DNA of 32,000 nucleotides from an uncultured archaeon (lineage in GTDB: Archaea > Iainarchaeota > Iainarchaeia > Iainarchaeales > 0-14-0-20-30-16). Shown here piece after piece: positions 8,293-27,277 of the stretch (positions are counted from its first letter, which is position 1; each line of letters starts with the position of its first letter). Both the position numbers and the translations under genes were made by a program. The stretch spans positions 1 through 32,000 of the forward strand of contig CAZQQS010000002.1 of NCBI GenBank assembly GCA_964595665.1, given 5' to 3'. Below the pieces are notes generated by a model. The model ran no database searches. It saw only the letters and a program-made list of their open reading frames with translations, and had not been told where the DNA came from.

Positions 8293-9363
8293 TTATTTGA
8301 AAGGAATAGCAATAAACAAATTACCATAGTGTTCTTTACCTTCAGCACCAGCTTTCATTTGATAACCAACAGAAATTATTATTGTAGCGTTCCCCGCAGG
8401 AATTACATTATCAATATTAAATTCAACTATATCGTATTTTTGAGTTACTCCAGCTAAAGCTTTCAAAGATAAATTTCTTAAGTAAGGATTATCAATAAAT
8501 TTTCCAAAATTAAATTTTCCACCTAATTGAACATCAAAATTCTTTGGATCTTTTAAATCCATTTTAATATATTCTGCAACTGCTGTAAAATATTGTGTTA
8601 CACTTTGTTCTAACATTAAAGCTCCCCAAAATTTATCTGGATTTTGTAAATTAAATCCTTTTGCACTTAATGTTGTTCCTTCTTTAGGAGTAAATACTGC
8701 ACCAACAGTCCAACTATTCTTTTGACCTTTTGCAAAACCAGTTCCAACAGCTAATTTTATAGTTTTATTTCCTGCGGCTAAAACAACATCAGTAACCCAA
8801 TTATTTTTTTGACCAACTCTAATTAATTTTACCCCTGGTTCAATAGAAAAACTCAATTTACCTAATTCACCAATAGGAATTCCAAAACTTGTTTTTGTTA
8901 AAGTATATTCAGGATTAACTGAACCCTCTGTATAGTGTTTTACTGTTGGGTTTGTGGCTAAAGGTGCTGCACCAGGCATAGTATCAGCTTTAGCTTGAAT
9001 TGGAGCAGATAATAAAAATAATCCTAACACTGCTTTTGCAAAACCTTTACCAAAAATAGTTCTATATTTTGAAGGATTTGCTGAAACTCTTTCTAAAATA
9101 ATTGCTGCTTGGTTAGGAGTCCTAGTTTTTGCAAATTCTTTTGCAAATGTTCTCGCAGAAGATAAATCTAAAGTTGAAACAAAATCTAAAGCTGATTTAA
9201 ATGTAGTTACATCTTTAGAAGAATTTGTTCTTTTAATATCTTTTACTTTTAAATTTCTTTCTCTCATTTGCCTATCTCTTCTTTTAGCACCTTTATCACT
9301 TCTTGCTAAAGTTTTATTTGATTCTCCTTTTTTAATTGTAACATGAATTCCTCTAACAGCCAT
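8293..9363 (-). CDS. Membrane-anchored protein: basic N-terminal domain, one hydrophobic anchor, beta-strand-rich porin-like C-terminal domain
   Basis: ATG at 9363 follows GGTGA with a 6-nt spacer. Residues 1-110 are Lys/Arg-rich. AVLGLFLLSAPIQAKA-D is a signal-anchor-like segment at about residue 110-127. The remaining ~230 aa are alternating amphipathic strands separated by G/N/K/P turns, ending HYGNLFIAIPFK. Confidence 0.6.
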   Translation of the reverse strand: MAVRGIHVTIKKGESNKTLARSDKGAKRRDRQMRERNLKVKDIKRTNSSKDVTTFKSALDFVSTLDLSSARTFAKEFAKTRTPNQAAIILERVSANPSKYRTIFGKGFAKAVLGLFLLSAPIQAKADTMPGAAPLATNPTVKHYTEGSVNPEYTLTKTSFGIPIGELGKLSFSIEPGVKLIRVGQKNNWVTDVVLAAGNKTIKLAVGTGFAKGQKNSWTVGAVFTPKEGTTLSAKGFNLQNPDKFWGALMLEQSVTQYFTAVAEYIKMDLKDPKNFDVQLGGKFNFGKFIDNPYLRNLSLKALAGVTQKYDIVEFNIDNVIPAGNATIIISVGYQMKAGAEGKEHYGNLFIAIPFK

Positions 9364-13766: not shown

Positions 13767-13810
13767 AAAATAATATATAAGTATAAATTTATATGTGTTT
13801 ATACTTTAGT
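13767..13810. promoter_or_regulatory. Divergent promoter region between rnz and the PIN-CCA gene
   Basis: A 44-bp spacer, AAATAATATATAAGTATAAATTTATATGTG..., has TATA-like boxes readable on both strands. The spacing implies very short or leaderless 5' ends. Confidence 0.3.
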
Positions 13811-15394
13811 ATGCAAATTAAAGTTTTTGATACTTCGGCTTTCTTAAATAGGTTTAACTTTCAGGATTTTTCTGAAATTTATACTACTAATTCAGTAATT
13901 AATGAAATCTTAAGCTCAGAAAACAAATTTATCTTTGAAAATTTAATTTCACAAAAAAAAATTAAAATTCAAGACCCAAAAAAAGAAACAATTATCAATA
14001 TGAAAAAAAAATGCCCTAAAAGCTTATCTAAAACAGATATAGAAATATTATCTTTAGCTTATGAATTAAAGGCAGAATTACATACAGATGATTATATGCT
14101 AAGAAAGATTGCAAATGATTTTAAATTAAAAATTAAAGAAACATTATACGATATAAAATTAGATTTAGATAAAATTTATAATAAAATAAAACCATCTGAG
14201 AAAGAATTAAAGGATATTGAAAATATAAAAAATGAAATAATCCCCAAAATTGAAACTTATGCTAAAAAAAATAAAATTCCTTTGAAAAAAGTTTTATTAG
14301 CTGGTTCAAGTGCGCGAGGCACTTTTATCCACAATAGCAAAGATATGGATATATTTTTATTATTTGATTTATCTTTAGACATTAATGAAATAAAAGAGCT
14401 AAATGAATCAATATTAAAAAATGTTTTCCAAAACTTAGAATTTAAAGAAGAATATGGTGAGCACCCCTACTTAAAAACTAATTACAAAAATCAAAATATA
14501 GATTTTGTTCCAGGATTCTATATAAAAAATATAAAAAATAAAAAATCCTCAGTAGATAGAACACCTTTACATTTAGAATTTTTAAACAAACATCAAGATA
14601 AAGAAATAAAAAAACAAGTTATTTTATTAAAACAATTTTTGAAAAATAATTTATTGTATGGAGCAGACCAAAAAAATAATGGTTTTTCAGGATATTTAAC
14701 TGAACTATTTATCTTAAAATACAAAACATTTGAAAACTGCTTAAAAGTATTCGCAAAAATTGAAGATAATAAAAAAATAACTTTAACTGATTTTCCCAAG
14801 AAAAAATTCGATGATTATTTAATATTTATTGATCCTACAGATATAAATAGAAATGTTGCTTCAGCAGTTTCTAAAAAAAATTGGGCAATATTAGAAAAAA
14901 TATCCAAAGATTATTTAGAAAACAAAAGTGAAAGTTTCTTTTTTAAAAGCTATTATAATTCAGATTTAACTAATAACATTACTTTTTCAATAAATGTTGA
15001 TGCTAATACTTTAGATACTAATTGGGGCATAATTAAAAGTATTGCAAATAAACTAAGAAATGAGTTGAATAATAAAAACTACAATATTGAAAAATATTCT
15101 GGAATATATTCTAATGAATTAGGATATGTAATATTACAAAGTAAATTAAAGAATACTTTAAGAGGCCCATTAACAACAGATAAAAAAAATGCAAAAGCAT
15201 TCTTAAAAAAACATCCTAAAGCATTTGAAAAGAATAAACAATTATATTGTGATATAAAATTCACTAAAAAAGATATAATTGATTATACTAAAAAAGTGTT
15301 TAAGAAAAATTATCCTAAATTAAAGATAAAACTCGCAAATATTAGCGAAATAAATGACTTAAATAGAGTAAAAAAGGACTTTTTTGACTTTTAA
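13811..15394 (+). CDS. cca: Fusion protein: N-terminal Nob1-type PIN nuclease domain plus archaeal class I CCA-adding enzyme
   Basis: Residues 1-120 carry PIN features: VFDTSAFL, NEIL, SKTDIEILSLAYELKAELHTDDYMLRKIANDFKLKI. Residues ~125-527 are colinear with archaeal CCA-adding enzymes as I recall them (GSSARGTFIHNSKDMDIFLLF, GEHPYL, VDRTPLHLEFL, GFSGYLTELFIL, DPTDINRNVASAV). It is one uninterrupted frame. ATG at 13811 is preferred over 13793. Confidence 0.85.
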   Translation: MQIKVFDTSAFLNRFNFQDFSEIYTTNSVINEILSSENKFIFENLISQKKIKIQDPKKETIINMKKKCPKSLSKTDIEILSLAYELKAELHTDDYMLRKIANDFKLKIKETLYDIKLDLDKIYNKIKPSEKELKDIENIKNEIIPKIETYAKKNKIPLKKVLLAGSSARGTFIHNSKDMDIFLLFDLSLDINEIKELNESILKNVFQNLEFKEEYGEHPYLKTNYKNQNIDFVPGFYIKNIKNKKSSVDRTPLHLEFLNKHQDKEIKKQVILLKQFLKNNLLYGADQKNNGFSGYLTELFILKYKTFENCLKVFAKIEDNKKITLTDFPKKKFDDYLIFIDPTDINRNVASAVSKKNWAILEKISKDYLENKSESFFFKSYYNSDLTNNITFSINVDANTLDTNWGIIKSIANKLRNELNNKNYNIEKYSGIYSNELGYVILQSKLKNTLRGPLTTDKKNAKAFLKKHPKAFEKNKQLYCDIKFTKKDIIDYTKKVFKKNYPKLKIKLANISEINDLNRVKKDFFDF

Positions 15395-15433: not shown

Positions 15434-16234
15434 ATGTCAAATTTATTTGATATTAACAATTATACTGATGAACAAGAAATATTAAGAGAGATATCTAATT
15501 TTGAAAATAAATTGAAAAAGTGTAAAAATCCTATAAAACAAAAAGAATTACAAAATAATATCTACTTATTAAAAAGAGCACTGCAATCTATTTATTCTTT
15601 AGACCCAAAAAAATTACAATATAGAATAGATGATTTGCAAAAGTCTTTAATTAAAGAAAGAAATAATAATCAAGAATCAAAAATATTGGCAAATTATTTA
15701 AAATTTTTAGTAAATAAAAATATTGAAAAAATACAACACCAAAATATGGGTGAATTAAAGGAGTTAGTATCTCAAGATTCAATAGATTTTGATATGGTTC
15801 TAGAAAAAATTAAACCTAAAAATTATTCTTATACTAAGAATTATATGAAAGCAATTGAAAATTGGTATGAATTATTAGATGATGATTTTGAGATAATAAC
15901 TCAAAATATCCCTAATTTTACGCTAAATGCAAAAGAAATATTACAATTAAAATCAGGAACACAAGCAGATATTTGTATTTTAACTTGTGCAATAATGCAC
16001 AAATTAGGAGATTATGCTGCAAAAGTAAATTGTGCAGAATTAAATGATTTTGAAATAATTTATTTTGTACAAACACAATATAAGAAAAAGACTTTAATAT
16101 TTGATTTCTTTCATTCTATGAATTATAATGATTTTTATAACCTCGAAGAAAAGGTTTTTGACAAGTATAAACCAAATAGTAAAACCATTAGAAAAATAAA
16201 ATTTAGCTTTAATGCATTTGATTATGAATCATAA
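15434..16234 (+). CDS. Hypothetical soluble protein: coiled-coil N-terminus and a possible transglutaminase-like C-terminal core
   Basis: It has no TM segment or signal peptide. The C-terminal LKSGTQADICILTCAIMHKLGDYAAKV loosely resembles the Cys-containing helix of transglutaminase-like cysteine proteases, but no clear His/Asp partners are seen. Its end overlaps the first pilin-like gene. Confidence 0.5.
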   Translation: MSNLFDINNYTDEQEILREISNFENKLKKCKNPIKQKELQNNIYLLKRALQSIYSLDPKKLQYRIDDLQKSLIKERNNNQESKILANYLKFLVNKNIEKIQHQNMGELKELVSQDSIDFDMVLEKIKPKNYSYTKNYMKAIENWYELLDDDFEIITQNIPNFTLNAKEILQLKSGTQADICILTCAIMHKLGDYAAKVNCAELNDFEIIYFVQTQYKKKTLIFDFFHSMNYNDFYNLEEKVFDKYKPNSKTIRKIKFSFNAFDYES

Positions 16235-16691
16235 AGGTTTTTTTGCAACGATTATAATTGCATTAATTATATCTATGATCATTCTGTTTGTTGGATTAAA
16301 TGTTAAAACCTTAAATGCAGAAACTAATTTTTTTGAAAATATTCTAGCAACAAAAGAATTAGAATTTAAGAGAAATACTTTTGAATATAATTTATATTAC
16401 TTATTAAAATATAATTTGGATACGAGCTCTAAAGAAAGTCAAGATTTAGATTTAGTTAAAGGAAAAATAGATTTAATATTACTTAATTATTTAATAGAAA
16501 ATGAATTTTATTCTATACCCATAACAAGCTTATTAATAAAAATTGTTGATTGTATCCCTAATGATTGTGTATATTATAGCTATTCAATATTGTCTTCAAT
16601 TAAAAAAAATATCACTTACAAAAATAAAGAAATTACAATAGGAATCCCTTTAAATTATACCATATCTAATGTGGTGATAATTAATGAATAA
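16224..16691 (+). CDS. Type IV pilin-like protein 1 (class III signal peptide)
   Basis: The N-terminus is MNHKG/FFATIIIALIISMIILFVGL. A C-terminal Cys pair is DCIPNDC. The start overlaps the upstream gene by 11 nt. Confidence 0.7.
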   Translation: MNHKGFFATIIIALIISMIILFVGLNVKTLNAETNFFENILATKELEFKRNTFEYNLYYLLKYNLDTSSKESQDLDLVKGKIDLILLNYLIENEFYSIPITSLLIKIVDCIPNDCVYYSYSILSSIKKNITYKNKEITIGIPLNYTISNVVIINE

Positions 16692-16929
16692 AGGGCAAAT
16701 ATCCATCGCACTTTTAATTAGTTTAATATTAATTCTAAGTATATTTGCAATATTCCTAACAAAATTAAAAGACTTAAATAAATTAAATATAGAATTAGAA
16801 CAAAAAAATAATAACAATCTTACACGAATTAATAATATTGAGAATAGTTTTAACATTAAAAAAATTAACAATATTAATCAACCATATATTTTACAGCAGG
16901 ATGTAGATTATGAAAATCATTACGAATAA
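16684..16929 (+). CDS. Type IV pilin-like protein 2 (class III signal peptide), short with an Asn-rich tail
   Basis: The N-terminus is MNKG/QISIALLISLILILSIFAIFL. It shares an ATGAATAA overlap with the upstream stop. Confidence 0.7.
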   Translation: MNKGQISIALLISLILILSIFAIFLTKLKDLNKLNIELEQKNNNNLTRINNIENSFNIKKINNINQPYILQQDVDYENHYE

Positions 16930-17293
16930 AGCACAAATATTAATCGACTTGCCAATTGTAATTTTAACAATAATCCTTTGCTTTGTATTATTTTTTCAGA
17001 TATATGAAATAAAAAAATATAATAATTTTTTAGAATTGATAACTATAACAGAAAATGCAATTACTAAGAAAAACTCTAAAATTGGATTTGTTAACTATGG
17101 GGAAACAAAAACATTACATTCGAATGTTATTTCGGAAATTAGATTAGAAGATCCAATAAAAAGAATTACAATTTATGATTATAATTCTAAAATTTATGAA
17201 CAAGGAATTCATTGCGAAAAAGAAATAAATATCTCTAGAGGAGTAATTTATGAAAATAAAATTTCTAAAATCATATTCACATTTTGCAAATAA
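16910..17293 (+). CDS. Type IV pilin-like protein 3 (class III signal peptide)
   Basis: The N-terminus is MKIITNKA/QILIDLPIVILTIILCFVLFF, with Asp at +5. Outside the TM segment there is a Cys pair (IHCEKE ... FTFCK). It overlaps the upstream gene by 20 nt. Confidence 0.65.
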   Translation: MKIITNKAQILIDLPIVILTIILCFVLFFQIYEIKKYNNFLELITITENAITKKNSKIGFVNYGETKTLHSNVISEIRLEDPIKRITIYDYNSKIYEQGIHCEKEINISRGVIYENKISKIIFTFCK

Positions 17294-17630
17294 AAAAGGT
17301 ATTTTATTTATTATAGAAATGCTTTTAGTATTATTATTAATTTTAGCCGTACTATTAGGTTTAACTAAAATAAACTTAACTAATAATTATGACCAATATT
17401 ATAATTTTTTAAAAATAAATGATATTTATACAATCATCTTAGGAAAAAATATTTATGATGCAGATGAAATAAAACAATTAATAGAATTTTATATGCCTTA
17501 TTCAGAATATGAAGTTATAAGTAATAAATTAATATCAAATAATATTACAAAAAACAATTGTTTAATAAAAAATATTGAGATTTATCATGAAGGAAATAAA
17601 AAAGCTATTCTAATTAAGATTTGTTATTAG
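17250..17630 (+). CDS. Type IV pilin-like protein 4 (class III signal peptide)
   Basis: The N-terminus is MKIKFLKSYSHFANKKG/ILFIIEMLLVLLLILAVLLGL, with Glu at +6. A C-terminal Cys pair is NNCLIK...KICY. There is no alternative in-frame start before the hydrophobic core. Confidence 0.65.
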   Translation: MKIKFLKSYSHFANKKGILFIIEMLLVLLLILAVLLGLTKINLTNNYDQYYNFLKINDIYTIILGKNIYDADEIKQLIEFYMPYSEYEVISNKLISNNITKNNCLIKNIEIYHEGNKKAILIKICY

Positions 17631-18042
17631 AAATATACCACAAAATTAATATTAAAAATGACATTAATATCCAACCTAAAAAATGAACTAAGTTAAAATG
17701 ATTTGGAGATATAAAAAATATTAATAATCGTAAAATATTTGCCAAATATAATATTGCCGAACCAAAAATACTGTAAATTAATTTCTGTTTCTTGTTTAAA
17801 TTAGTTAAGGGGCTTAACATAATTGCTAAAAATACAAATATAGAAAAAAAACCAGAACATTCATAATCTATAAGCATATTTGTTGAATTTAAAACAACAA
17901 AACCATTAGAATCAACTAGATTTAAAGCATGAAAAAACTTAATAACTGGGTATTCTAATGGCAAAAAGCTTAATGTATAAAACAAGATTAATGCCAAAAC
18001 AACATAAATTATGAAGAAAAGTACCTTTTTCTGAGAATCCAT
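17614..18042 (-). CDS. Minimal archaeosortase/exosortase-family protein
   Basis: It is a 142-aa polytopic membrane protein with the family's Cys/Arg/His triad in the expected order and context: IDYECSGFFSIFVFLAI (C62), LANILRLLIFF (R105), NLVHFLGWILMSF (H120). Confidence 0.7.
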   Translation of the reverse strand: MDSQKKVLFFIIYVVLALILFYTLSFLPLEYPVIKFFHALNLVDSNGFVVLNSTNMLIDYECSGFFSIFVFLAIMLSPLTNLNKKQKLIYSIFGSAILYLANILRLLIFFISPNHFNLVHFLGWILMSFLILILWYISNNKS

Positions 18043-18113
18043 AATATAAGAAGTAAGTCAATTTATAAAAGTTTACCTATTAATATTTATATTCTTTGTT
18101 ACAAAGTGATATT

Positions 18114-19313
18114 ATGGACATAAAAGAGCTGTTTAGAAAAGAAATAAACAAAAAGAGTGTTTTTAAAAATAAAGAACTAATTTCTCCGCATTATGTTCCA
18201 GATACTTTGCCATTTAGAGAATTACAAATTCAAGATATTATTACTAATTTTGCACCAGTTTTACAAAATAATAGACCAACAAATCTATTTATTTATGGGA
18301 AAAGTGGAACAGGAAAAACTGCAACAATAAACAAAGTATTAGAAAAAATGTTAGAAATTCAAAAAGAAAGTAATTTAGAACAAAAAATATTAACTACTTA
18401 TATGAATTGTCGAACTTACAATTCAAAATATAAAATACTATTAAAAATTGCAGATAACTTATTCCCTAAAAGTTATTTTGGATATAGTGCAAGTTATATT
18501 TATGATATGATATTAAAAGAATTACAAGAAAAAGGAATATATATTATTTTAGTATTAGATGAAATTGATTTAATTAAAGATGTAAACGATGCAATTTATT
18601 CTTTAGTTAGAATTAATGATGAATTAAAACAAGGAAGCATTACAATTGCAGGCGTATCTAATAATGTATTATTTAAAGATTCTTTAGATTCAAGAACTAA
18701 AAGTGGATTATGTAAAAAAGAATTATTATTTCCACCATACAATGCAAGAGAATTGCAAGAAATATTAAAACAAAGAATACCAATAAGTTTTGTAGAAAAT
18801 GTAGTGGATGATGGTGCAATTGCTTTAGCTTCAGCTTATGCTGCACAAGAATCTGGAGATGCACGAACTGCATTATTATTATTAGAAAGTGCGGGTGAAT
18901 TAGCAGATAAAGAAGAAACATATTTAATTACTGAAAATGAAATTAAAGGCGCAAAAAAACAAGTAGAAGAAGAAATAATTATTGAAATGTTATCTACTTT
19001 GCCAGAACAAATTAAAGTTGTGTTATATTCAATTGCAACAATGGTAAAAAACAAAAGATTCTCCACACACTTATTAAACGATGGACACGTAATTTATTCT
19101 GGAGATGCATATTTAGAATATGTGAAACAAATAAAACAATTATCTAAAATGCCAGTGTCTATGAAATGGTTTAAACAGTATTTAGAAGAATTAAACACCT
19201 ATGGATTCTTAACAATTACTACTTCTGGAAAAGGAGTTAGAGGTTCTACCACTTTAATAAAAATGGTTATAGATTCAAATACAGTATTAAAAGTTTTAGA
19301 AACTAATTTATAA
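18114..19313 (+). CDS. cdc6: Orc1/Cdc6 replication initiator
   Basis: Present are the N-terminal VPDTLPFRELQI, Walker A YGKSGTGKTAT, Walker B LVLDEIDL, sensor GDARTALLLLE and a C-terminal winged-helix region. ATG at 18114 follows AGTGAT; the track start at 18096 is a TTG. Confidence 0.92.
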   Translation: MDIKELFRKEINKKSVFKNKELISPHYVPDTLPFRELQIQDIITNFAPVLQNNRPTNLFIYGKSGTGKTATINKVLEKMLEIQKESNLEQKILTTYMNCRTYNSKYKILLKIADNLFPKSYFGYSASYIYDMILKELQEKGIYIILVLDEIDLIKDVNDAIYSLVRINDELKQGSITIAGVSNNVLFKDSLDSRTKSGLCKKELLFPPYNARELQEILKQRIPISFVENVVDDGAIALASAYAAQESGDARTALLLLESAGELADKEETYLITENEIKGAKKQVEEEIIIEMLSTLPEQIKVVLYSIATMVKNKRFSTHLLNDGHVIYSGDAYLEYVKQIKQLSKMPVSMKWFKQYLEELNTYGFLTITTSGKGVRGSTTLIKMVIDSNTVLKVLETNL

Positions 19314-19504: not shown

Positions 19505-20074
19505 TTATTTATTCTTCAAAAAAAGAATAAATTCATTAATTCTTTTTTCTTTTGTTTCTGGAAGTTTAGCTTTTAAAATAGCTCTAAAATACATTTTCTT
19601 TATTGATGGTGCAAGTTTTTCAAATTTTAATTTTAATTTTTCATTTATTTTTTTGTTTAATTCCTTTTTTAATTCTTCTGGCATATCTGGATTTTTTGGA
19701 ATCCCAAAATCATGAGTTTGTTTTCTTAATCCTTCTTTATAAAAACGTAATCCTTGTTCGCGCATTCTATTTTCTAAAATTAATTTTTTACCATAAGAAA
19801 TTGTATTATTACTCCATTTACTATTTTTAGTTCGTTTTGAATAAATTATTTTATATCTATCTTCATCAATTCTATGTACAGTAGTATCAATCCACCCAAA
19901 ACAAATTGCTTCGTGCATTAATTCCATTAAATTTGGTAAAGATTTACCAGTATGTTTTTTATATTTTATTACTGCAACTTTGTTTTCAATTATATGATTT
20001 TTTTTTAACCAGTTTGTAAAATCAGAGATCTTAAATACAACTATTTCTGGTATTTTAAGATTATTTTTTTGCAT
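19505..20074 (-). CDS. YdeI/OmpD-associated family protein (DUF1801-related)
   Basis: The central EAICFGWIDTTVHRIDEDRYKIIYSKRTKNSKWS and the C-terminal SIKKMYFRAILKAKLPETKEKRINEFILFL match the YdeI/OmdA pattern. I prefer the start at 20074 (MQKNNLKIPE), which overlaps the upstream gene by 14 nt. Confidence 0.6.
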   Translation of the reverse strand: MQKNNLKIPEIVVFKISDFTNWLKKNHIIENKVAVIKYKKHTGKSLPNLMELMHEAICFGWIDTTVHRIDEDRYKIIYSKRTKNSKWSNNTISYGKKLILENRMREQGLRFYKEGLRKQTHDFGIPKNPDMPEELKKELNKKINEKLKLKFEKLAPSIKKMYFRAILKAKLPETKEKRINEFILFLKNK

Positions 20075-20606
20075 TGATTTCACTTTTTCTTTTTTGATTT
20101 TTTTCTTGATTTGTTTTTTTATTATCATTTTCCTTTGATAATTCTTTTGATAAATCAGATTGTATTTTATAATACAATTGTTCATTAATTAAATTCTTAA
20201 AATATTGTTTTTGCAAAAACTCCAATTGTTTCTTTAATTTATCAAAATACAATAATTCTTTACCAATATTTTGCAAATCAAAATCTAGATAAAATAATCT
20301 TTCATCTAATTCTTTAACTTCTGAAACAAATTGATTCTCAGTTATTTTTCTTTTCAAATATTGTTTTTGCAAATTATTTTTTTGTTCTAAAACGGATTCT
20401 TTTTGTTTATATAAACTTAAAGATTGTTTTAAAGTATTAGATTCACTTTTAGAAAACAATAAATACCCAAAGAATAACACTAAAATAATGCTTATTAAAA
20501 ATATCAATATAAAATACCACACAGGGAAAATAATTAGTAAAATTGCAAATATTATGCTCAAAAATAAAGCAAATATGAAAAAAATCCCTTTTAGTTTATT
20601 GTCCAT
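20061..20606 (-). CDS. Hypothetical membrane protein (2 TM plus a cytoplasmic coiled coil)
   Basis: From the ATG at 20606 it reads MDNKLKGIFFIFALFLSIIFAILLIIFPVWYFILIFLISIILVLFFGYLLF, followed by a long heptad-like charged region. Confidence 0.5.
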   Translation of the reverse strand: MDNKLKGIFFIFALFLSIIFAILLIIFPVWYFILIFLISIILVLFFGYLLFSKSESNTLKQSLSLYKQKESVLEQKNNLQKQYLKRKITENQFVSEVKELDERLFYLDFDLQNIGKELLYFDKLKKQLEFLQKQYFKNLINEQLYYKIQSDLSKELSKENDNKKTNQEKNQKRKSEINAKK

Positions 20607-20707
20607 AAATTTTATATTTAAGATATATTTATATATATATAGCAGGAAATATATATTATACAAAAATACTTATTTTAATGTATAATATTTGATTTAGAGG
20701 GATATTT

Positions 20708-21463
20708 ATGGGATTAAGACCAGGAAGATGTTGTAGAAATATAGAGCGATCTTTTACTAGAATTGCTCCAAAAGTTCAAAGAAAGAACTTTTTAGGAGGA
20801 GTTCCAGGAGTAAGAACAAGAGACTTCGCAATTGGAAACCAAACTAAAGATTATAATAGTGTTTTAGACGTTATAGCTAAAGAAAGTATCCAAATAAGAG
20901 ATAACGCTTTAGAAGCATTAAGACAAAAATTGGTTAAGAAATTAACTGCAGAAGTTGGAAAAGAAGAATATTTTATAAAAATAAGATTATATCCTCACCA
21001 CATATTAAGAGAGCACAAATCTGCTTCTGGTGCTGGTGCCGATAGAGTATCAAAGGGTATGAAATTAGCTTATGGTAAAAATACTGGAAGAGCTGTTCAA
21101 ATTAGAAAAGGACAAACTTTATTATCTATTGTAGTAGATGCGAGTAATATTGCAAAAGTAAAGAAAATTATAGATACTATAAGATACAAAGTAAATATGG
21201 CTTTTGAAGTAAAACAAGGAATACACGAAAACAAAAAATTAACTGGTAGAAAGAAGTGGACTAGAGAAGCAAAATTACAAAAGTTACAAGAGCCAGTTAA
21301 AGAAGAAGCTAAAGATGCTAAAGGTAAAGCTCCTGCTAAAGGTGGAAAGGCAGCACCTGCTGCTAAAGCAGATGCTAAAGCTGCTCCAGCTGCTAAAGGT
21401 GGAAAGGCAGCACCTGCTGCTAAGGCAGATGCTAAAGCACCAGCTAAGAAAGGTAAGAAGTGA
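20708..21463 (+). CDS. rpl10e: Ribosomal protein L10e (uL16) with a ~85-aa Lys/Ala/Pro-rich C-terminal extension
   Basis: The N-terminus MGLRPGRCCRNIERSFTRIAPKVQRKNFLGGVPG and the segment LYPHHILREHK...GAGADRVSKGM are classic L10e. GAGGG precedes the ATG. The tail is KGGKAAPAAKADAKAAPAAKGGKAAPAAKADAKAPAKKGKK. Confidence 0.92.
   Translation: MGLRPGRCCRNIERSFTRIAPKVQRKNFLGGVPGVRTRDFAIGNQTKDYNSVLDVIAKESIQIRDNALEALRQKLVKKLTAEVGKEEYFIKIRLYPHHILREHKSASGAGADRVSKGMKLAYGKNTGRAVQIRKGQTLLSIVVDASNIAKVKKIIDTIRYKVNMAFEVKQGIHENKKLTGRKKWTREAKLQKLQEPVKEEAKDAKGKAPAKGGKAAPAAKADAKAAPAAKGGKAAPAAKADAKAPAKKGKK
21335..21445 (+). repeat. Near-perfect tandem duplication (57-bp unit, about 2 copies) inside the L10e tail
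   Basis: GCTAAAGGTGGAAAGGCAGCACCTGCTGCTAAAGCAGATGCTAAAGC... recurs at 21335 and 21392 (19-codon period). It differs by one A/G change and a short indel near the end of the unit. Local GC is far above the window background. Confidence 0.85.
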
Positions 21464-21564: not shown

Positions 21565-21840
21565 TTGAAAAAAAGCCTTTTAATTTTATTATTAAGTTAT
21601 TTTGTAAGTGTAAATGCGATAATTGGAAGTATAGAATATAATAATGTAAAATCTTATTTGAAAAGTGTAAATGCTTTAAAAAATAATCCAGAATATATAT
21701 CTACAATTAGAATTAGTTTAACCAAATTAAAACAAAAATTTTCTTTAAGCAAAATAGAAGAAGAAACATTATTAAAAATTAGAATGAAAAGAAGGGTTTA
21801 TTCTTCTTTATCTTTTCTTTTACTTGTTCTTACAATATAA
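21565..21840 (+). CDS. Possible small secreted or membrane-tethered protein (TTG start)
   Basis: AAGGGGA lies 4 nt upstream of TTG. The N-terminus MKKSLLILLLSYFVSVNAIIG is a good signal peptide, and the C-terminus ends in a hydrophobic tail SLSFLLLVLTI. The last 43 nt overlap the convergent 65-aa gene, so it is uncertain. Confidence 0.35.
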   Translation: MKKSLLILLLSYFVSVNAIIGSIEYNNVKSYLKSVNALKNNPEYISTIRISLTKLKQKFSLSKIEEETLLKIRMKRRVYSSLSFLLLVLTI

Positions 21841-25111: not shown

Positions 25112-25705
25112 CTAATAAGAAGAAAATAGAATCTCACATTTTTCCATTTTTTTATAAAATTCGTAATCTTGTGTTTGTTCTTTACTATAAAATATTGCTA
25201 AATCTAAACCTTCCCAAGCAAAAAACCAACCCGCTGGTTCCATAACTATTAATAAAAACGCTAAAAAATAACTTGTATTTCCATAATTTACTAATAAATA
25301 AGTTGCCATAAATAATAAACAAACTCCAATAACTATAAATGAAATTCCTTTTTTAATTATTTTTTTTCGCTCTTTTTTTTGCATACGATAATGCTTTACA
25401 AAGTGCTCATGCAACCTTTTCGTTATTATTTCTTCTTCTTCCGAATCTCTTAATTTTTCATCAATTAATAAATTCAAATGATAATTATCTAATACAGTAT
25501 ATCTTAAAGCTCGTTTAGATTCTTCCAAAAAATCTTGAGATAGTGCTCTTTGAGAATTTGGCCTAGGATCAAAATCAGAAAATACATCGTCATAAGAATC
25601 TAACCACAAACTAATTTCTGATTTTTTTAATAATTCAGTTCTTTGCTTTTCAAAATTGGTCTGAATATTTTGTCTATTTAATAAAGTTTGATTCTTAATA
25701 ACCAT
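25112..25705 (-). CDS. Hypothetical membrane protein (cytoplasmic N-domain plus 2 C-terminal TM)
   Basis: SLWLDSYDDVFSDFDPRPNSQRALSQDFLEE looks like a conserved acidic motif. Two TM helices lie near the C-terminus. No confident family assignment. Confidence 0.5.
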   Translation of the reverse strand: MVIKNQTLLNRQNIQTNFEKQRTELLKKSEISLWLDSYDDVFSDFDPRPNSQRALSQDFLEESKRALRYTVLDNYHLNLLIDEKLRDSEEEEIITKRLHEHFVKHYRMQKKERKKIIKKGISFIVIGVCLLFMATYLLVNYGNTSYFLAFLLIVMEPAGWFFAWEGLDLAIFYSKEQTQDYEFYKKMEKCEILFSSY

Positions 25706-25752: not shown

Positions 25753-26925
25753 GTGCTTTATTTTATTGCTTTTGGCACTTTATTAGGATTGATTTTTGGT
25801 ATTATTTCTGGATTAATCCCAGGCCTACATATTAATTCAATAATTTATTTAATTTCAGAATTACCTTTAAATTTAGAAATAAATGCTATAACAATAATTA
25901 TTTCTTCAATTATCTTTAGTTTCTTAAGTATTTTACCATCAACAATATTGTCTATTCCAAATAATGATAATTTTATTGCTGTTTTACCTGCACAAAAAAT
26001 GTATTTAAAAGGTAAGGGTTTTGAAGCAATAATGCTTTATTTAAAAGGTGCAAAATATTCTTTAATTTATGGTTTGCCAGTAATCATTTTATTTTTAGTT
26101 TTATTACCTTATTTGCCAAACTCTTTAAAAATTATAACTCCAATAATATTAATTTTAAGCATAATTTTTTTATTTTTTAACACAAAAAATCATTTTGGAT
26201 ATTTGATAATAATTTTTGCGGGATTGATTGGATATTTATCTATGAATTATTTTACTTTGCAAAATCCTTTGTTACCATTAATCTCTGGATTATTTGGATT
26301 CAGTTCATTAATATTTATTCTAAAAGAAAATGTATTGTATATAAAACAAAAAATAACTTTTCCGAATATTTCAAAATATACAAAAATAAAAATTGGAATA
26401 ATTGCTCCGAGTTTATCAATAATAGTATCATTATTTCCCGGATTAGGAAATGGTTTTGCAACTTATTTTGGTTCAAAAATTTCTAATTTAAAAGATGAAG
26501 AATATATAATTTTAAATGGAGGAATTTCAACATTGGTAATGGTTTTATCTTTTTTTGTAGTTTATGTTTTAAACAAATCAAGAACTGCATCAGCAGTATT
26601 CTTCAAAGATTTTGCTCAAAACACAATAATTTATAATTATTATTTAATAATTGGACTAATTATTTTAAGCTGTTTATTTGGTTATTTTATTACAAAAATT
26701 TTGGCTGAAAAAATCTTGTTGCGCACCACAAAAATAAATACTAAAAAAATTAGTTATTTTTTAATTGTTTTTTTGCACATATTAGTATTAATATTTTCAG
26801 GATATATTGGAATATTAGTTTTTTGGATTTCAAGCTTAATTGGTTACCTATGCATAATATCTAAAAATCCCAGAATATTATTGTTATCTTGTATAATTAT
26901 TCCTGTATTGATTTACTTTATTTAA
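25753..26925 (+). CDS. Polytopic membrane protein, possibly TctA/DUF112-like
   Basis: It has about 10-11 TM segments. Repeated G-x-I/F-P-G-L motifs (SGLIPGLHIN, LFPGLGNGFATYFG) recall DUF112/TctA. The start is GTG. Confidence 0.45.
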   Translation: MLYFIAFGTLLGLIFGIISGLIPGLHINSIIYLISELPLNLEINAITIIISSIIFSFLSILPSTILSIPNNDNFIAVLPAQKMYLKGKGFEAIMLYLKGAKYSLIYGLPVIILFLVLLPYLPNSLKIITPIILILSIIFLFFNTKNHFGYLIIIFAGLIGYLSMNYFTLQNPLLPLISGLFGFSSLIFILKENVLYIKQKITFPNISKYTKIKIGIIAPSLSIIVSLFPGLGNGFATYFGSKISNLKDEEYIILNGGISTLVMVLSFFVVYVLNKSRTASAVFFKDFAQNTIIYNYYLIIGLIILSCLFGYFITKILAEKILLRTTKINTKKISYFLIVFLHILVLIFSGYIGILVFWISSLIGYLCIISKNPRILLLSCIIIPVLIYFI

Positions 26926-26962: not shown

Positions 26963-27277
26963 ATGGACTCAGAATCAAAAAAGAACTTTATTATATTTTT
27001 GCAAAAAAATCCTAAATTATTCTCTATTGCAAAATCAGAATTGTGCATTTCGTTATTGCGATTCTTACAAGAAAGGGGTTTGTCTGTAAATGATTTTAAA
27101 GATACTGAATTTGGTTATTTGAAAAATGAAGACTTAAAAACATTATTAGAGTTGTTATATGATTTAAGACTTTTAGAAAAACATCAAATAATTGGAAAAG
27201 AAATTTATTACACAAATAACAATACAAACGATTTTTTAGAAGTATATGATTCAACAAAAAAACAATATGATTTGTGA
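26963..27277 (+). CDS. Hypothetical small protein (winged-helix-like?)
   Basis: A 104-aa soluble ORF whose stop overlaps the start region of the next gene. I recognise no motif. Confidence 0.4.
   Translation: MDSESKKNFIIFLQKNPKLFSIAKSELCISLLRFLQERGLSVNDFKDTEFGYLKNEDLKTLLELLYDLRLLEKHQIIGKEIYYTNNNTNDFLEVYDSTKKQYDL

Follow-up and report, generated by a model that had tools for sequence, protein, structure and literature searches.

The 32,000-nucleotide (nt) stretch analyzed here (hereafter the window) is positions 1 to 32,000 of contig CAZQQS010000002.1 from an uncultured archaeon. It has a GC content of 25% and carries a short gene of the exosortase/archaeosortase family, the mini-archaeosortase gene. 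Members of this family are polytopic membrane proteins with a conserved Cys, Arg, and His. A sequence-only reading of the window had placed the open reading frame (ORF) and its motifs at C62, R105, and H120, and both lie at the positions it gave. In the ORF listing, the minus-strand frame closes with a TAA stop at 17614-17616, and the motifs are E61-C62-SGFF, N102-ILR105-LL, and V119-H120-FLGW. The gene runs tail to tail into the last of four pilin-like genes on one side and diverges from a gene for Orc1/Cdc6 on the other (Table 1). We find that it encodes a genuine, conserved, and probably active short-form member of the family, and that its place beside the pilin-like genes most likely reflects a gene order that was inherited.

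Profile searches bear out the family assignment that had first been drawn from motifs. In an NCBIfam search, the protein scored 36.3 bits (E = 5.1e-9) with the signature model TIGR04178, whose curated cut-off is 23, and residues 57-137 aligned with model positions 2-91 of 97. Against PF09721 (Exosortase_EpsH), residues 46-137 aligned with model positions 150-250 of 254. The family signal is far above chance, and the protein is the catalytic C-terminal core of the family with one N-terminal helix added. TIGR04178 is matched by 49 of 50 homologues, and a homologue with 80% identity is labeled 'exosortase/archaeosortase family protein' by the Joint Genome Institute (JGI). The Cys/Arg/His residues are conserved in homologues, as the sequence-only reading had claimed: eight close homologues (44-92% identity) all keep C62, R105, and H120. 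A fourth residue, N102, joins them as invariant in alignments of 8, 13, and 50 sequences; in the largest of these, with a mean column identity of 28%, the four are the sole invariant columns.

Full-length orthologues were found at 43-92% identity. Compared with the orthologue of 80% identity, the ratio of nonsynonymous to synonymous substitution rates (dN/dS) is 0.12, with a dS of ~1 that is near saturation; a ratio of this size indicates purifying selection on the gene. These observations bear on the reading that the gene is a spurious or decaying ORF without function. DNA of 25% GC yields many hydrophobic ORFs, and the PF09721 score falls under the gathering score, yet the passed NCBIfam signature, the full-length orthologues with invariant catalytic residues, the dN/dS value, and a highly confident structural model all speak for a real protein. 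We regard a spurious ORF as hardly credible, and the conservation data effectively refute it.

The structural model was made with AlphaFold2 from the 50-sequence alignment and has a predicted local distance difference test (pLDDT) score of 95.1, a predicted template modeling (pTM) score of 0.87, and four transmembrane helices. Helices are modeled at residues 3-26, 31-39, 65-76, 84-111, and 113-140, with a beta-hairpin at 48-57, and the prediction is that of a confident four-helix membrane fold. The positive-inside rule would place the basic segments MDSQKK, NLNKKQK, and NNKS on the cytoplasmic side of the membrane. We infer from this that the putative catalytic residues C62, R105, and H120 are near the outer face of the membrane. 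Such a position would fit an archaeosortase active site, because the substrates are exported proteins that are held temporarily by a C-terminal transmembrane domain (PMC6098224).

The length of 142 amino acids had been taken by the sequence-only reading as minimal, but it is not unusual. Four curated subfamily models fall in the same size class as our protein: ArtD with 150 positions, pacearchaeosortase with 167, XrtX with 168, and XrtG with 187. Furthermore, when 1.84 billion cluster representatives were searched exhaustively with HMMER (E up to 1e-3), 91 of them matched, and nearly all of these are 140-200 amino acids long. A size of ~150 amino acids is ordinary for many members of the family. 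ArtA, XrtA, and EpsH have roughly eight transmembrane helices in about 300 amino acids; unlike these, the mini-archaeosortase has four, with a single one N-terminal to the catalytic core.

Its best subfamily score is with XrtG (TIGR03110; 37.8 bits against a cut-off of 102.75), where the C-terminal half alone aligns. Alignment is near full length with ArtD (TIGR04175; 28.1 bits, cut-off 125), in which residues 6-134 match positions 5-134 of 150, and with pacearchaeosortase (NF033505; 18.3 bits, cut-off 80), in which residues 12-137 match positions 13-143 of 167. The latter, judging by its name, also comes from DPANN archaea. Exosortase X (XrtX, NF046081) scored 23.1 bits against a cut-off of 170, and the models for ArtA (TIGR04125) and ArtE (TIGR04124) gave no match at E up to 10. 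The best subfamily-model E-values of the 50 relatives, for which per-member bit scores were not listed, range from 1e-14 to 5.5e-26 and look too weak for membership. Because the scores of the mini-archaeosortase lie far below all of the curated subfamily cut-offs, we assign it, on these comparisons, to an unnamed clade within a known class of short enzymes and to none of the curated subfamilies.

Table 1. Features of the window and of related loci. Positions refer to the window unless a locus (L number) is given.
Feature	Position	Strand	Description
Mini-archaeosortase gene (exosortase/archaeosortase family)	17614-18042	-	ATG start; 142 amino acids; four transmembrane helices
Fourth pilin-like gene	17250-17630	+	126 amino acids; ...NKKG|ILFIIEMLLV...; Glu at +5; conserved penultimate Cys
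Third pilin-like gene	16910-17293	+	127 amino acids; NKA|QILIDLPIVIL...; conserved C-terminal ...FTFC[KES]
Second pilin-like gene	16684-16929	+	81 amino acids; MNKG|QISIALLISL...; conserved C-terminal ...HYE
First pilin-like gene	16212-16691	+	159 amino acids; NHKG|FFATIIIAL...
p266	15434-16234	+	Soluble; 266 amino acids; overlaps first pilin-like gene
Orc1/Cdc6	18096-19313	+	Pfam Cdc6_lid, Cdc6_C, AAA_22; divergent from mini-archaeosortase gene, 53-nt spacer
TctA-family membrane protein	25753-26925	+	Listed with 25112-25705 (-) and 26963-27277 (+)
'Decapeptide'-type (PF25296) repeat-protein gene	L004 10473-11081; L006 1388-1996; L007 7696-8361		202 amino acids
Subtilisin-like (S8) protease	L011 11128-14487	+	1119 amino acids; signal peptide; C-terminal transmembrane segment ending 'WKLY'
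Sister-clade sortase loci	L013 3654-5465; L010 8001-9151		
CCA-adding enzyme	13793-15394	+	NTP_transf_2 and tRNA_NucTransf2
uL16/L10e	20708-21463	+	Tandem repeat at 21313-21426
Conserved membrane protein	20061-20663	-	Between uL16 and Cdc6
Protein with no family match	8293-9363	-	356 amino acids
Probably spurious ORF	21565-21840		91 amino acids

The fourth pilin-like gene ends with a TAG stop at 17628-17630, so that its tail-to-tail overlap with the mini-archaeosortase gene is exactly 17 nt (17614-17630). Coordinates and stops thus agree with what the sequence-only reading had described, a 17-nt 3' overlap of a gene convergent with an operon of class III signal proteins. Note that convergent genes of this kind are not co-transcribed. 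For comparison, we gathered related loci by exact-protein look-ups and pattern scans; a narrower-alignment query gave 3 genome and 9 metagenome loci. Exact look-up of the first and last complete proteins of the window matched no recorded entry. The clade of the window has sortases of 43-92% identity, and its loci with enough flank are, in addition to the window itself, L001-L008, L011, L012/L016, L015, L017, and L019. In all of these, the order is the same: cdc6 divergent upstream, the sortase gene, the four convergent pilin-like genes, the gene for p266, and that for a CCA-adding enzyme. The conserved block as a whole reads Band7-Rpb6-S17e-uL16-x-Cdc6-Art-pilins-p266-CCA, and Band 7, Rpb6, S17e, and uL16 are in place too wherever the clade loci reach that far.

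Where both flanks are present, identities are 73-92% for Cdc6, 52-82% for the CCA-adding enzyme, 78-94% for Lon, and 43-80% for the sortase. The flanking housekeeping genes are equally syntenic, and therefore the conservation of the adjacency of sortase and pilin-like genes does not stand out from the general synteny within this narrow lineage. Cdc6 adjoins the sortase in every clade member with enough DNA and belongs to this conserved synteny block, not to the sortase system. The junction itself varies. An identical 17-nt tail overlap is found in the window, L001, L008, L011, and L012; it is 26 nt in L015 and L019, and the genes do not overlap in L017. In L004-L007, a gene for a repeat protein of 202 amino acids is inserted between the sortase and the pilin-like genes, and the in-frame stop it carries in L006 and L007 suggests that it may be decaying there. 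The placement is best read, from these comparisons, as inherited gene order within a compact housekeeping block, neither an operon nor a demonstrated pairing.

The nearest relatives beyond the clade (33-38% identity) stand in other contexts and have no pilin-like neighbors. Genes for TrmB, sortase, PAP2_C, and GT2 (a family 2 glycosyltransferase) accompany one another in L013/L021 and L010, a histone gene precedes the sortase gene in L014, and on the P0011 contig the sortase gene follows a HAD gene and is convergent with PAC2. The adjacency seen by the sequence-only reading therefore stands in part: it recurs in many metagenomic relatives and is not confined to this genome, but it belongs to one syntenic clade only and is absent at 33-38% identity. 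A gene near the L010 sortase is 53% identical to its counterpart in the window, close to the 55% of L020 within the clade; the L010 organism may thus be not much more distant than the in-clade ones, even though its arrangement differs. In the sister clade, we also observed that TrmB, the sortase, and a PAP2_C-like membrane protein are co-directional and are followed by GT2 in L013, and that the PAP2_C-like proteins of L013 and L010 are 47% identical.

All four pilin-like proteins begin with a few basic residues, [KR][GA], and then ~20 hydrophobic residues, a class-III-like pattern. It is present in all four ORFs of the window, L001, L004, and L012, and in four of four in L008 (the third with R-G); three of the four fit in L011, where the 74-amino-acid orthologue of the 81-amino-acid gene is without [KR][GA]. 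The fourth protein has a Glu at +5, as in bacterial type IV pilins, and shows weak, sub-threshold similarity to ComGD and ComGC. An internal Cys accompanies the conserved penultimate Cys in the third and fourth proteins, a pair suggestive of the C-terminal disulfide loop of pilins. The Glu and Cys residues, too, are kept by the orthologues in five other loci. None of the four has a Pfam or NCBIfam match above threshold (the best is ComGD, E = 0.05), and we found no pilus ATPase (T2SSE), platform protein (PilC), or prepilin peptidase (A24) in the window.

The p266 gene is probably the first of this operon. The protein has no Pfam or NCBIfam match and is 48-79% identical across the clade; a profile search returned homologues only in the clade of the sortase (at least 47% identity) and no independent occurrence of the operon. 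Several of these homologues are on contigs that agree in length with contigs of the sortase homologues. Its invariant residues include C185, H189, D193, and D224. The pilin-like proteins and p266 have no C-terminal transmembrane segment, and thus none looks like a classical archaeosortase substrate.

Could the mini-archaeosortase nonetheless work with the pilin-like operon beside it, maturing or lipid-anchoring a pilus component or being needed for DNA uptake or host attachment? The sequence-only reading knew of no link between archaeosortases and pilin systems, but one has been reported. In Methanococcus maripaludis, a transposon screen, in-frame deletion, and complementation showed that natural transformation depends on the archaeosortase ArtE (MMJJ_17200), as it does on type IV-like pilus genes and on a TctA-like protein (PMC10133366). 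Deletion of ArtE abolishes this pilus-dependent process (PMC10133366). ArtE is thus an uncharacterized archaeosortase-family protein that is tied to a process requiring pili; the link is genetic, may be indirect, and need not run through pilins. Even with E-values of up to 10 allowed, the ArtE model is not among the hits of our protein, and the pilin-like proteins carry N-terminal rather than C-terminal signals.

Genomic observations speak both for and against such a partnership. The adjacency is kept at 43-92% sortase identity in all clade loci with sequence beyond the 3' end of the sortase gene, five loci share the same 17-nt overlap (the window, L001, L008, L011, and L012), and p266 was detected only within this clade. 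Yet the genes are convergent and not co-transcribed, the flanking housekeeping genes are just as syntenic, the pair is split in L004-L007 by the insertion of a gene, and the sortases of the sister clade have no pilin-like neighbors. The pilus ATPase, platform protein, and prepilin peptidase are also missing from the window. A TctA-family gene, of a class also found in the M. maripaludis screen, lies 8 kb away; L001, L004, and L012 have it in this syntenic block as well, and its proximity is therefore not independent evidence. Altogether, we consider a functional partnership with the adjacent pilin-like operon improbable. More speculative still, and quite unlikely in our view, is the idea that the mini-archaeosortase, the four minor-pilin-like proteins, p266, and the TctA-family transporter act together at the cell surface as one module for taking up DNA or contacting a host, in which the sortase would mature or anchor a pilus-associated factor, mirroring the requirement for ArtE, pili, and TctA in Methanococcus.

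The likeliest role of the mini-archaeosortase, in which we place moderate confidence and which we propose by analogy, is that of a membrane Cys-transpeptidase that removes the C-terminal anchor of exported surface proteins and attaches these proteins to lipid. The presumed chemistry comes from ArtA of Haloferax volcanii, an enzyme twice the size. ArtA uses a Cys to cleave a C-terminal tripartite signal at the outer face of the membrane, after which lipid is attached (PMC6098224). By extension from this enzyme and from the family literature, the mini-archaeosortase would sit in the cytoplasmic membrane with its Cys, Arg, and His near the outer face. It would recognize Sec-exported surface proteins ending in a motif, a transmembrane helix, and a basic tail, cleave off the tail with its Cys as the nucleophile, and transfer the new C terminus of the substrate to a membrane lipid.

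We scanned all ORFs of at least 50 amino acids in the window and L001-L012 (about 200 kb) for a C-terminal transmembrane segment followed by a basic tail. Among window ORFs, only the mini-archaeosortase itself and a major facilitator superfamily (MFS) transporter have one, and no PGF-CTERM protein is encoded there. This upholds the earlier observation that none of the proteins of the window has a tripartite sorting signal at its C terminus and that no substrate is visible. The rest of the scan gave one S8 protease besides multi-pass membrane proteins and spurious ORFs of AT-rich DNA. This protease, in L011, is the sole candidate for a C-terminally anchored secreted protein in the fetched loci; its C-terminal sequence is ...NSGFNVKFVFWIVGIVVAVLVGAFLVWKLY, and its gene lies 4.4 kb from the sortase gene of that locus. 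A single example cannot define a sorting signal.

Three other candidates were rejected. The 202-amino-acid repeat protein of L004 has neither a signal peptide nor a transmembrane segment, and its gene has an in-frame stop in L006 and L007. The 278-amino-acid neighbor in L014 is a soluble protein. The ORF of 91 amino acids in the window starts like a signal peptide and ends in a hydrophobic stretch; it is probably spurious, as it shares sequence with the 3' end of the S17e gene and no basic tail follows the stretch. The window amounts to an estimated few percent of such a genome (32 kb), and substrates of ArtA need not adjoin the enzyme gene, so that the absence of a substrate from the window is uninformative. 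A genome encodes between 1 and 52 substrates of ArtA (PMC6098224). Those of the mini-archaeosortase most likely have their genes in other parts of the genome.

Several results weigh against our interpretation. The PF09721 score is narrowly below the gathering score (23.4 bits against 25.7), and no relative of the protein was found in the PDB by either sequence search or fold search. None of the curated subfamily cut-offs is reached, and therefore no cognate sorting signal can be inferred by homology. No substrate with a C-terminal tripartite signal was found in the window or in the ~200 kb of related loci, and the L011 protease matches no curated CTERM model. Finally, p266 and the sortase occur together wherever context could be read, in one clade, which is also what a functional link predicts; vertical inheritance and such a link could each account for this co-distribution.

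Alternatively, the mini-archaeosortase could be an orphan short exosortase-like enzyme with a non-classical role, for example, in a lipid- or glycan-linked envelope pathway, like the members XrtG, ArtE, and ArtF, whose names say no more than 'family protein'. Its best subfamily score is indeed with XrtG, although far below the cut-off, and the sister-clade genes stand in a co-directional Art-PAP2_C-GT2 arrangement, where the PAP2_C-like protein is a possible partner of short archaeosortases in the handling of lipids. The mini-archaeosortase of the window, however, has no PAP2_C or GT2 neighbor, and it strictly conserves the Cys/Arg/His set typical of proteolytic or transpeptidase members. The fetched loci contain no tripartite-signal protein apart from the one protease, but the substrate scan covered a small part of any genome. 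We regard such an orphan role as unlikely, though less so than a partnership with the pilin-like operon, and keep to a surface protein-processing transpeptidase as the preferred reading.

The window also carries archaeal housekeeping genes: Orc1/Cdc6, the CCA-adding enzyme with its fused PIN domain, an RNase Z-like protein, Lhr helicase, uL16, S17e, Rpb6, Lon, Band 7, and TctA, together with TYW3, the beta-CASP factor FttA, a proteasome beta subunit, XPD, and RsmB. These genes, and the fact that the closest named relatives are in metagenome-assembled genomes of 'Candidatus Diapherotrites', point to a DPANN-type archaeon. The CCA-adding enzyme has an N-terminal PIN_6 ribonuclease domain, a fusion kept in all related loci. 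The uL16/L10e protein carries a C-terminal extension rich in Lys, Ala, and Pro that is encoded by a 57-nt tandem repeat, and this tail varies in length and sequence among related loci. The conserved membrane protein (154-200 amino acids) encoded between uL16 and cdc6 has a superficially class-III-like start, MDNKLKG|IFFIF..., followed by a second transmembrane helix and a coiled-coil-like cytoplasmic domain, and is probably not a pilin. A further protein without a family match begins with a highly basic stretch of 50 residues, has one hydrophobic segment at ~110-130, and is otherwise rich in beta structure; it may belong to the cell surface or envelope. No convincing origin-of-replication repeats were seen beside cdc6.

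If the mini-archaeosortase is what we think it to be, a short-form enzyme of the family whose place beside the pilin-like genes is inherited, it represents one more unnamed clade in an already large set of short archaeosortase-like enzymes. This would be useful for the annotation of DPANN genomes and is not surprising. Should the pairing with the pilin-like genes instead be functional, the clade would provide a simple system, with a small genome, in which the need of archaeal pilus-dependent DNA uptake for an archaeosortase homologue might be explained.

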